Assembly (NCBI GenBank): GCA_050950765.1 | Contig: JBMNIF010000003.1 | Location: 320,001 to 384,000 of the forward strand | From: Bdellovibrionota bacterium | Lineage (GTDB): Bacteria > Bdellovibrionota_C > UBA2361 > JAAYZI01 | Direction: 5' to 3' | DNA: 64,000 nucleotides | Shown here: positions 39,794-56,461 of the stretch, one piece after another | Layout: each line of letters begins with the position of its first letter | Position numbering within the stretch: the stretch's first letter is position 1 | The notes under the pieces: generated by a model | What the model saw: the letters and a program-made list of their open reading frames with translations, nothing else | Told to the model about the DNA's origin: nothing | The model's database searches: none | Program-made: the position numbers and the translations under genes

Positions 39794-39870
39794 GCCCTCG
39801 TAGCTCAGTTGGATAGAGCACAGGTTTCCTAAACCTGGGGTCGTAGGTTCAAGCCCTGCCGGGGGTGCCA
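39794..39870 (+). tRNA. tRNA-Arg (anticodon CCT)
   Basis: Acceptor GCCCTCG/CGGGGGT, D arm TAGCTCAGTTGGATAGAGC, anticodon arm CAGGT-TTCCTAA-ACCTG, T arm GTAGGTTCAAGCCCTGC, encoded CCA. Confidence 0.96.
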
Positions 39871-54894: not shown

Positions 54895-55327
54895 ACACAC
54901 TACCTTTAAAGGAAGCAGCTAAGCATTCTCTAACTACCGTGCTATCTATCGTGTCGGTGCGCTTACCCCCTAACTTTCCTGACTTCCGAGTGTGGACACC
55001 TTTTTTTAGGATAAATTTTCAAATAATCTTAACAAATTTTTTAATTTTGAGTTAAAAAAGAATTTAAAAATTCCTATTTACAACATCACCTCAACACCTC
55101 TACTTGTCCTAGTTGTCTTTCTCTTTTTCGCAATCTCCGTAACAGTGTATTTTAAAAGGTACCTTCCCCCCTAGACGCTTAAAAAAAGTGGGGTGCTACT
55201 GGAGGAGAATCTAGTGAGGCGTTTTATCTAGAAATTTTTAATTTATGTAGAAAAGGTAAAGATATCCATAAAACGCTTAGAAAGATCTCGCCCTTTAAAG
55301 CTATCATACTGAATCTGTTATAATTTT

Positions 55328-55356
55328 TTTACATAAAAAATGAAGCATTTTATAAG
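55328..55356 (+). promoter_or_regulatory. Putative sigma70 promoter of the structured-RNA/ORF unit
   Basis: TTTACA-N17-TATAAG, ending ~22 nt before the first long-range helix strand at 55379. Confidence 0.5.
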
Positions 55357-55378
55357 TTAGAGCCGATATGAGTTTTGT

Positions 55379-56212
55379 AAGATAAGGGCTTGGGTAGAAG
55401 TGTTTTGTGAAGGATTTTAAATGTATTCATTCACACGTCCATTTCAGGGATCTCCTGTTTTTTCATAAAGAGACCTTTTTACTGATGAGCCATCTCTGTT
55501 TAGTTTTTTAACTTGATAGAGATGGCTCATCGGTTGGTTATATCTGAAGTTCAGGTGTAGCCGGTGGTCATCTCGGCAAAACCGAGAACAATCAAAACAT
55601 TACTTTTCGGCAATGCCGAGAAAAGGAAGTTATCATGGCGAAAATCAAGAAAAGAACGTTCGCAATTATTGTCCCTAAAAATCGGAGAGAGTTCCGTGAA
55701 GAGCGAGGTCTCAACGAGGTCTGCGAAAGTGAGGTTTTGGAAGCGTTCAGAGGTTTTTTGGCAAAATATAACATCCAAGACGTTTTTTGTAACATCGAAA
55801 TGGGTGACTGGCAAGGAAAGACGGCGGAGGAAAGGGACCACCAACTGAGTGGTTCGCTTGAAAACGTTACAACTAGGAAAGGGTATAAGCTTGTCAACGC
55901 ACTGGCAAGGCACATCTACAACGAACTGGATACCGACTGTGTCGATGTTCATTATAAGGTGAACTCGTATGAGGACGGCGTCTGGTCTATTAACCAACAA
56001 GGTCGAAAAAGAGAAGGGGAGTAGAAATTGGAGGAATAGATTGGTAACAACCTAATCCATCCGAACCGCCCCGAGGCCTTAAAGGGTTCTTCTGAATACC
56101 TTAAGACCTCGGTCGCCTGATGGAAATGAGTGAATACAAGACCGAAACGAAGGCCCAAGAGGTTTTTAATCTCAAAGGTTTCCCGCCAAGCTCTTGTCTT
56201 CACCCCTTTTTT
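55379..56212 (+). ncRNA. Putative highly structured RNA with 5'-3' long-range closing helices, enclosing a 129-aa ORF
   Basis: 55379-55393 pairs with 56186-56200 (15 bp, 2 G-U). 55422-55448 pairs with 56116-56138 (12 bp + 4 bp + 5 bp). Local hairpins at 55481-55534, 55536-55562, 55571-55587, 55604-55622, 56030-56062 and 56071-56112. T-tract follows the closing helix. Confidence 0.6.
55635..56024 (+). CDS. Hypothetical 129-aa protein with SAM-lyase/DUF3574-like ferredoxin-fold motifs
   Basis: AAGGAAG RBS. Pattern G-D-W...A-E-E...ALARHIYNELDTDCVDVHYK. The family resemblance is by eye only. Confidence 0.6.
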   Translation: MAKIKKRTFAIIVPKNRREFREERGLNEVCESEVLEAFRGFLAKYNIQDVFCNIEMGDWQGKTAEERDHQLSGSLENVTTRKGYKLVNALARHIYNELDTDCVDVHYKVNSYEDGVWSINQQGRKREGE

Positions 56213-56461
56213 ATTCTTTTATTAAATTTAATTTAACAAGCTCTATCTCTATAAATCTTACTTCTTATACAATACCAACACACCTTTTAACGCCTTAATA
56301 CTTTTAAGAGTTTTTTAAGAGTTGCACCAAGAAAAATATCTACCCTCTGCCGATACTACTTCATCTTTACTTCTTAATAACAACATCAAAAAACCTTAAT
56401 AACTTTTAAAGCTAAAATAAAAACACACCAATAAAAAAAGCCTCCTCCTTCCCCTTATCCT

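Follow-up and report, generated by a model that had tools for sequence, protein, structure and literature searches.

What kind of element occupies the AT-rich gap where an ABC-transporter ATPase gene and lipA converge, 3′ end towards 3′ end, in the genome of an uncultured Bdellovibrionota bacterium (GCA_050950765.1; here G000)? The locus lies within a 64,000-nt stretch of contig JBMNIF010000003.1 (positions 320,001–384,000), referred to below as the window; coordinates are window positions on the + strand unless another contig is named. An original prediction, made from the letters alone, had described the locus as a stand-alone structured RNA unit, richer in G+C than its surroundings, the ends of which zip together around a small open reading frame (ORF). 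The difference in composition is readily seen (G+C of 0.39–0.49 in the unit against 0.28–0.37 in its flanks) and the predicted fold supports a structured transcription unit with ends that pair around the ORF; ‘stand-alone’, in contrast, is wrong, as four more such units are found in the same genome, all belonging to a family in which conserved flanks surround unrelated and swappable ‘cargo’ genes. Our preferred reading, drawn from computation on six units and held with belief and doubt in about equal measure, is that these are end-paired mRNA cassettes under a shared form of post-transcriptional control, with conserved flanks that also permit one gene to be swapped for another.

Reading the window unit in the 5′ to 3′ direction, we see that a T-run is followed by a sigma-70-like promoter (55328–55356), comprising TTTACA (55328–55333), a 17-nt spacer and TATAAG (55351–55356). 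This site was not listed by our consensus promoter scan, the rule for which demands a T at position 6 of the −10 box; a −35/−10 pair is found at the equivalent aligned place in all six units of the family described below. Downstream of it lies the 5′ strand of a terminal helix, P1 (55376–55393), with a partner in the predicted fold at 56186–56203, on the far side of the ORF: AAGATAAGGGCTTGG (55379–55393) is complementary to CCAAGCTCTTGTCTT (56186–56200), two G·U pairs included. A second long-range helix, P2, joins 55422–55448 to 56116–56138. The ORF, which encodes an orphan protein of 129 amino acids, runs from 55635 to 56024, and a T6 tract (56207–56212) follows the 3′ strand of P1. The promoter-like site, the T-tract and both long-range pairings could thus each be read in the DNA much as first described. 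When 55360–56215 is folded with RNAfold, the + strand reaches −277.9 kcal/mol, as against −231.4 ± 6.7 kcal/mol for 20 dinucleotide shuffles (z −6.89; 0/20 as good), and both of the long-range helices are present in its minimum-free-energy fold. In a search of the window against Rfam release 15, the sole match at gathering level is a tRNA (39794–39867), with none on the unit; at E-values up to 10, only models for animal or plant microRNA precursors touch the long hairpin of its leader, the best of them reaching 39 bits where the cut-off is 71.8.

A DNA search of the unit's own genome returned its hairpin region at four more places, all on contig C2; further copies being something that the original prediction had proposed to look for. 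Three of these are tandem units with near-identical flanks (T1, T2 and T3; C2 minus strand, ~1160506–1157401) and the fourth, S, is a single unit (C2 minus strand, 1227987–1226653). Searches with nhmmer gave exactly five units in the genome, with E-values of 5.5e-47 to 9.5e-75 for the leader and 1.9e-27 to 1.4e-52 for the trailer; one weak match besides, at C5:72121–72255, sits inside a coding region and was rejected as chance. A sixth unit (G8) is found in G008, a Bdellovibrionota metagenome-assembled genome (MAG) from a different family of the same order, and variant copies are present in metagenome runs. The units are laid out in one order: a T-run, the −35/−10 pair, AAGATAAG(A/G)G(C/T)TTGG, a TGTAT(C/T)CATT segment, a hairpin of ~24 bp, a second hairpin, the ribosome-binding site, the ORF, the trailer and its one or two hairpins, the complement (G/A)CTCTT(A/G)TCTT and the T-tract. 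The structured leader takes up ~240 nt and the trailer ~170–220 nt of whole units that span 788–1350 nt.

The main hairpin of the leader is the most widely conserved part of the unit, and a covariance model built on it (R1) finds matches in 4/91 genomes of the order and 4/124 of the phylum, namely in G000 (family f1) and in three of the four genomes of family f8. A pattern scan for the same hairpin picked out three stretches among genome contigs, one true (the G008 contig) and two that are chance matches within genes; seven among metagenome contigs (JGI), none of them true; and none among viral contigs, where model R1 gave no score at the site of any of the nine stretches returned by a looser pattern. 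Phage and plasmid records, searched by BLAST with two units, gave no match. The cassette family is lineage-restricted, and its members are self-contained expression units.

P1 closes the predicted whole-unit fold in six of six units, whatever the cargo. At 11–17 bp in length, it gives duplex energies of −15.8 to −24.2 kcal/mol compared with shuffled means of −7.0 to −11.9 kcal/mol (for the window unit, −24.2 against −11.9 ± 2.6 kcal/mol with shuffled partners), and the complementarity is maintained where the letters change: in unit S a C-G pair has become U-A, GAGTTTGG facing CCAACTC in place of the GAGCTTGG and (A)GCTC of the other units. The helix is also closely bracketed, the end of the predicted −10 box lying 11–12 nt before it in five of the six units (22 nt in the window) and the T-tract starting 4–6 nt after it in all six. 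With promoter and T-tract so close by, P1 would bring together the very first and very last stretches of the transcript, as far as these can be placed from sequence. In T1, T2, S and G8, the 3′ strand of P1 is contiguous with a trailer hairpin of 13–17 bp. Beyond the unit proper, the AT-rich tail of the window copy holds a degenerate second version of the P1 3′-strand motif (CAAGCTCTATCTC; 56237–56249), and T1–T3 carry a similar second copy (AAGCTTATCTT); in each case, the window included, these stand ~35–45 nt past the T-tract.

A P2-type duplex is likewise possible in six of six units, and it too shows a compensatory change of C-G to U-A: TATTCA opposite TGAATA in the window unit, TATCCA opposite TGGATA in the others. 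Comparison of flanks between homologous copies, a check attached to the original prediction, has come out in favour of paired ends, with helices kept and compensatory changes present.

The leader itself is strongly structured. A consensus fold of the six leaders contains 54 pairs, with 95.0% of cells paired as opposed to 40.5–52.7% when the partners are slid, and ten pairs are changed on both sides versus 4.7 ± 1.3 in shuffles (0/500 reach ten). The main hairpin (55481–55534 in the window; ~24 bp) supplies 24 of these pairs, with 99.3% of its cells paired and four pairs changed on both sides. Hairpin 2 (55536–55562), with three U·G pairs in the window unit, has both-side changes in three of its five pairs across units; both hairpins were part of the initial description and both are present. 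Close to the tip of the main hairpin, an identical set of G·U, U·G and U×U appositions is retained in all units, a pattern of conservation that suggests a specific binding site. Additional leader hairpins, particular to the window unit, lie in 55563–55634, a region that also holds the ribosome-binding site. On the far side of the ORF, the conserved trailer (56051–56215) holds a hairpin at 56072–56112 as well as the 3′ strands of P2 and P1. One element of the first description falls outside the conserved structure: a GUAA-loop hairpin (56030–56062), most of the 5′ arm of which lies in a variable junction past the stop codon (56025–56050), carries five variant-strain substitutions at 56025–56039, none with a compensating change listed, and has lost part of its sequence to replacement in a further copy.

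The ribosome-binding site, AAAAGGAAG (55623–55631), is largely paired in the predicted ensemble for the window unit. Leaders of the family contain CU-rich stretches complementary to it, and the consensus fold includes a helix, 88.9% paired, between CUCCUU directly upstream of the main hairpin and AAGGAG of the ribosome-binding site; in folds of single units the site is again mostly paired, with partners that are local segments of leader or ORF and that differ from unit to unit. We also observe a possible mini-ORF in the leader, at a site recognisable in five of the six units by a ribosome-binding-like AAGGA placed 6–9 nt before ATG or GTG, followed by codons for M-Y-P/S-F. Four units have a frame of six codons (MYPFDV or MYPFYV) and the window unit a longer one of 15; in T3 the start reads GTA. 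The window copy (55409–55468) consists of GAAGGA, a 6-nt spacer, ATG at 55421, 15 codons and TAA at 55466–55468. Because it shares letters with the 5′ strand of P2, translation of the mini-ORF would compete with closure. Within it, and in the window unit only, a small terminator-like hairpin (CAGGGATCTCCTG; 55445–55457) is followed by T6, a layout that recalls attenuation control.

What, then, do the conserved flanks enclose? The six cargo ORFs encode proteins of 129, 205, 135, 112, 302 and 188 amino acids, none of which matches Pfam or PADLOC and which have only weak matches in PHROG (E 0.005–0.05). For the window ORF, P0002 is the sole relative among 5.8 and 1.84 billion proteins, and no relative was found in genome contigs or in metagenome contigs; the protein search with the T1 ORF found none at all. 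Nor are the cargos clearly related to one another: the best pair, T1 and G8, shares 25% identity over 162 amino acids (E 4e-4 in a six-protein set), and at the DNA level the two cargos are no more alike than shuffled sequence, though the flanks of G8 are 81–84% identical to those of T1. Codon usage is nevertheless best in the annotated frame for all six, with log-odds of +0.14 to +0.26 per codon under a model built from 620 long G000 ORFs, in which two housekeeping genes score +0.29 and +0.33. The window ORF scores +0.16, its next best frame, on the opposite strand, +0.04; an antisense ORF at 55551–56000 was considered (codon score 0.04; six synonymous and 12 nonsynonymous changes) and is not favoured over the + strand ORF. 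Structure prediction adds little. In the Atlas, the window ORF has only unnamed clusters and DUF3574 as structure neighbours, AlphaFold models of cargo are of low confidence (pLDDT 55.7 and 61.9), and Foldseek against the PDB gave nothing at E ≤ 0.001; the best Foldseek resemblance of the window ORF is to tautomerase-like folds (TM 0.38), from which we draw nothing.

The contrast between flanks and cargo is also visible between strains. All or part of the stretch occurs in 20 listed runs from 14 studies of anaerobic digesters, bioreactors, wastewater and landfill, five of which may be the source sample. Four runs were compared, all as assembled contigs, from which transcript starts, ends, strand and level are not readable. 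In a landfill run, a variant represented by single contigs at a depth of 4–7 shows no listed difference over 55291–55681 as against 20 substitutions in the 387-nt ORF (Fisher 2.6e-6), together with an in-frame insertion of 15 nt in the ORF. Its trailer differs by a single substitution and an inserted TT, at places that the predicted fold leaves unpaired or puts in a loop (trailer versus ORF substitutions, Fisher p 0.007). Of the ORF changes, 19 are nonsynonymous and one synonymous (308 and 79 sites; dN/dS ~5, one-sided p 0.06), with charged residues exchanged and hydrophobic residues conservatively replaced; P0002, for which residues 42–129 are covered, carries the changes of the landfill variant. 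A more drastic change is recorded in an RNA-library run, in the form of one 579-nt contig that matches 55596–55619 and 56051–56167, with 412 other letters replacing 431 in between. The cargo has thus been replaced along with its ribosome-binding site between conserved flanks, the upstream joint falling at 55619/55620; at the loose end of the same contig, one U·G of hairpin 2 has become U-A.

Replacement of this sort immediately calls to mind the phage motifs known as PeSLs (a sigma-70-like promoter plus stem-loops), and an improbable explanation, but one to which we allow some weight, is that our units are moron- or PeSL-like cassettes, their flanks no more than a promoter-leader and a terminator-trailer copied by tandem duplication, gene conversion and recombination, with complementarity in P1 and P2 either incidental or an aid to termination. 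In the cited portion of the account by Arbiol et al. (2010; PMC2839356), promoter and stem-loop motifs of T4-type phages flank non-essential ORFans and drive their shuffling, recombination also deleting and replacing genes. The three tandem units with their near-identical flanks fit such an origin, as does orphan cargo replaced between flanks, with a promoter-like site and stem-loops in six of six units. The likeness has its limits: PeSLs, as portrayed in that portion of the paper, are motifs of T4-type phages, whose hyperplastic regions are their setting, and each lie within one intergenic region, whereas here ~240 + 200 nt are conserved, the units are chromosomal and without phage or viral match, and leader and trailer are mutually complementary across the gene. 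Copying of flanks alone also sits poorly with the compensatory changes made to P1 and P2 in diverged units, with a variant strain in which ~390 nt of leader have no listed change and the ORF is changed at 5% of sites, and with a wobble bias that is limited to the sense strand.

This last feature also bears upon a rather less probable alternative, one that we regard as decidedly unlikely, in which the element is made of DNA; its ends being either the terminal inverted repeats of a non-autonomous mobile element with passenger genes or sites that fold as single strands, in the manner of attC or the ends of IS200/IS605. The outer ~30 nt of leader and trailer do repeat each other in inverted orientation (AAGATAAGAGC ... 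AATGG at either side), and the distribution, with two families represented among 4/124 genomes of the phylum, is patchy. Moreover, the G008 unit sits inside a 2.7-kb mosaic island where the neighbouring genes are 91–95% identical in DNA to other places in this genome, despite the LipA proteins of G008 and G000 sharing only 57% identity; we conclude from the disparity that DNA has passed between the two lineages. One such neighbour is a GNAT-like gene region (L017 of G008, 1131–1964 in unit orientation) that is 91–95% identical in DNA to two parts of G000 (C3:203110–203469 and 205297–205774); these halves being ~1.8 kb apart suggests an insertion in the G000 copy. An empty site was sought in G041, a member of the genus of G008, where only one downstream gene is shared, at 76% identity, and no clean break points are seen.

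Saying this, the strand on which the structure resides points away from DNA. The sense strand folds 12.6–39.2 kcal/mol better than the antisense strand in six of six units (for 55360–56215 the − strand gives −240.4 kcal/mol, z −4.10), and when G·U pairs are forbidden, the gap falls to within 6 kcal/mol in four of the six and shrinks to 12–16 kcal/mol in the window unit and G8. An inverted-repeat scan that is blind to the type of mismatch returns 33 G·T, 8 A·C and 15 others in the stems of the flanks (binomial 5.6e-5, calculated over units that are not independent); for the stems of the window unit alone, transition mismatches number 7 G·T and 3 A·C. The preference for G·U over A·C on the sense strand, which the original prediction had noted at this one locus, thus extends to the family, although folded single-stranded DNA would also tolerate G·T. 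Promoter, ribosome-binding site, ORF and T-tract are all on the same strand as the wobbles of the stems. Conservation, moreover, reaches ~70 nt upstream of the 5′ repeat, taking in the promoter, and ~100 nt past the 3′ repeat, so the inverted repeats do not lie at the ends of the conserved element. No flanking direct repeat or target duplication was seen by eye at unit borders, and only five copies are present, three of them in tandem. The genome holds no IntI (TIGR02249) above cut-off, weak tyrosine-recombinase matches at C2:471769 and C2:1062608 being far from the units, and there is no transposase or recombinase among the ORFs beside the two C2 sites, where our Pfam check was limited to a methyltransferase gene. 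From the sense-strand wobble bias, the conservation past the inverted ends, the want of a visible target duplication and the failure to find an integron integrase or recombinase, we favour selection on an RNA fold over a DNA element.

Amongst RNA-based alternatives, we consider it very unlikely that the units are locked mRNAs of the type I toxin-antitoxin (TA) kind, as in hok or aapA, where a 5′–3′ interaction keeps the full-length message inert until it is activated by 3′ trimming. The class was raised in the original prediction, and the resemblance is real. The sections of PMC6733600 that we cite present the mRNAs of hok/sok and aapA/IsoA as stable transcripts with paired ends, a structured leader and CU-rich occlusion of the ribosome-binding site, and give the 5′–3′ interaction, the occluded site and a short upstream frame as hallmarks, all three of which have counterparts here; long-distance pairing between 5′ and 3′ ends being predicted in six of our six units. 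In those same sections, however, it is the paired ends that hide the ribosome-binding site, the message encodes a small toxic peptide, and a cis-antisense RNA is indispensable. Our P1 and P2 lie >170 nt upstream of the ORF or after it and neither contains the ribosome-binding site, which is engaged instead by local or unit-specific partners. The cargo, where a type I system would call for a small hydrophobic toxin, is large (112–302 amino acids), diverse and hydrophilic or soluble, with GRAVY values of −0.22 to −0.83 and a maximum 19-residue Kyte-Doolittle window of 0.57–1.30, no window exceeding 1.3. Finally, a consensus scan, which could miss a weak or unusual promoter, found no antisense promoter at a shared position in the six units.

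Processing or circularisation, with the closing helix as a substrate for RNase III or some other nuclease, in the way of the stems around rRNA, or as a means of bringing the ends together for ligation, is highly improbable: P1 stacked on the trailer hairpin of T1, T2, S and G8 would give ~25–30 bp, and the main leader hairpin measures ~24 bp, but P1 alone (11–17 bp) is short for RNase III, Rfam yields no ribozyme or intron family match, and no cut sites or back-spliced junctions are seen in the two RNA runs examined, both of them assembled contigs. An RNA-based mobile element, also raised in the original prediction, likewise finds no support in our results.

Two further kinds of known system deserve comparison. 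Integron cassettes are mostly promoterless, carry one 3′ attC site and need the IntI integrase. Our units resemble them as tandem, swappable, single-gene units with conserved non-coding borders and a cargo mostly of unassigned function; they differ in that each has a promoter-like site and a long 5′ module in a genome with no IntI above cut-off (attC core motifs were not searched for). As regards pairing between untranslated regions (UTRs), 5′-UTR/3′-UTR pairing in icaR of Staphylococcus aureus (PMC3868564) and hbs of Bacillus subtilis (PMC5737220) is reported to control translation or decay by ribonucleases; these are single genes with their own UTRs, whereas here one leader-trailer pair is common to unrelated genes and travels between genomes. 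Taken as families, PeSLs, type I TA mRNAs, UTR-pairing mRNAs and integron cassettes each have defining features that our units lack.

To return to end-paired mRNA cassettes, several observations weigh against that reading and are best considered together. In T1, T2 and G8, the partners of P2 are predicted to lie in local hairpins instead, a consequence of leader and trailer each holding both the box and its complement; P2 may then represent one option of two in the fold, and not a helix that is always there. A T-tract 4–6 nt from P1 makes for poor intrinsic-terminator geometry. In G037 and G026 (both of family f8), a nucleoside 2-deoxyribosyltransferase-like gene (PF15891, E 2.4e-10; G037 L036, 1643–2085, and G026 L037) has a diverged main hairpin in its leader, and of the unit only that hairpin is kept, with no clear or convincing 5′–3′ pairing; it should be said that the G026 ORF has masked bases and that the G037 contig stops directly after the ORF. 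The trailer consensus fold gains no net support from covariation (covariation term +0.94). Only six full units are available, of which three are near-identical tandem copies, and covariation statistics are weak on that account; the consensus structure was, in addition, built from the same alignment that was used for testing, and a tally of what we took for independent events in the best stems, made by hand (~15 G·T to 3 A·C, p ~0.004), was not blind. A protein that bound both ends of a DNA element would likewise keep those ends complementary. Lastly, all that matched in an RNA library is a single assembled contig, from a sister copy, which by itself is no proof of transcription and may reflect DNA carry-over; of three RNA runs listed two were examined, one giving this single contig and the other no match.

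With these points in mind, the cassettes may be pictured as follows. The first bases of the transcript would pair with the last bases before the T-tract to form P1, and an inner segment of the leader could pair with the trailer as P2, such that the mRNA would close as a panhandle with the ORF inside its loop. Closure might hide both RNA ends from end-dependent ribonucleases and, combined with the occluded ribosome-binding site, would place all cargos under one shared post-transcriptional control. The same conserved flanks could serve as homology arms, through which cargo would be exchanged between units and strains by homologous recombination. A bolder version, which we offer tentatively and think more doubtful than not, is that of an undescribed modular RNA ‘chassis’, in which a leader-trailer pair closes the mRNA, gates its stability and translation through one switch and moves between lineages, with unrelated genes under strong diversifying selection slotted in by recombination.

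Since the flanks are conserved and the cargo is fast-changing, the cargo genes probably encode conflict proteins. They could be defence or counter-defence proteins, an idea prompted by several of them being small and acidic (pI 4.3–6.3 in five of the six) and by the setting of two sites, beside a type II CRISPR-Cas locus and a gene for a Dam-like methyltransferase. This D12-class adenine methyltransferase gene (PF02086) adjoins the tandem units T1–T3 in divergent orientation. Unit S converges with a type II CRISPR array that follows cas9-cas1-cas2 and ends ~500 nt away. The neighbours of the window unit are housekeeping genes. The CRISPR-Cas locus itself (C2:1221204–1226130) comprises cas9 (1071 amino acids), cas1, cas2 and eight repeats of ~36 nt (GATCATAGCACGCCGGAGCAAAGGAAGGAAGCTATGAC). 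Directly upstream of unit S we also note a non-coding tandem array with ~100-nt units (C2:1228090–1228850; …GGTGCCACCC(TTCAGGGA/ACCAG)…CTAGGTCTGGACGGAGGTTAAAAA…).

A separate repeat is found near the window unit, at 54975–55042 (...CTTCCGAGTGTGGACAC-T7-AGGATAAATTTTCAAATAATCTTAAC), with copies at C2:878115–878182 (90%), C3:406727–406797 (82%) and C1:539839–539883, each located directly past the end of a gene; it is probably a shared gene-end module of terminator type. Many loose ends of metagenome contigs begin at this repeat.

Bacterial mRNAs that pair end to end are known for a few single genes and for small toxin genes, and swappable cassettes of promoter, gene and terminator are known from phages. 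What appears new in these units is that they pair end to end and that their flanks are so large; in a literature search that was aimed at known analogues and was not exhaustive, we found no report that unites the two features, with one large self-pairing leader and trailer common to unrelated, swappable orphan genes and better conserved than its cargo. If the pairing of the ends is functional, it would be a natural and portable module for controlling the life and translation of an mRNA, and it would also account for trade in fast-evolving accessory genes where no dedicated recombinase is at hand. Were the modular chassis to prove true, it would amount to an integron-like form of gene capture in which RNA structure, not a recombinase site, is the common currency.

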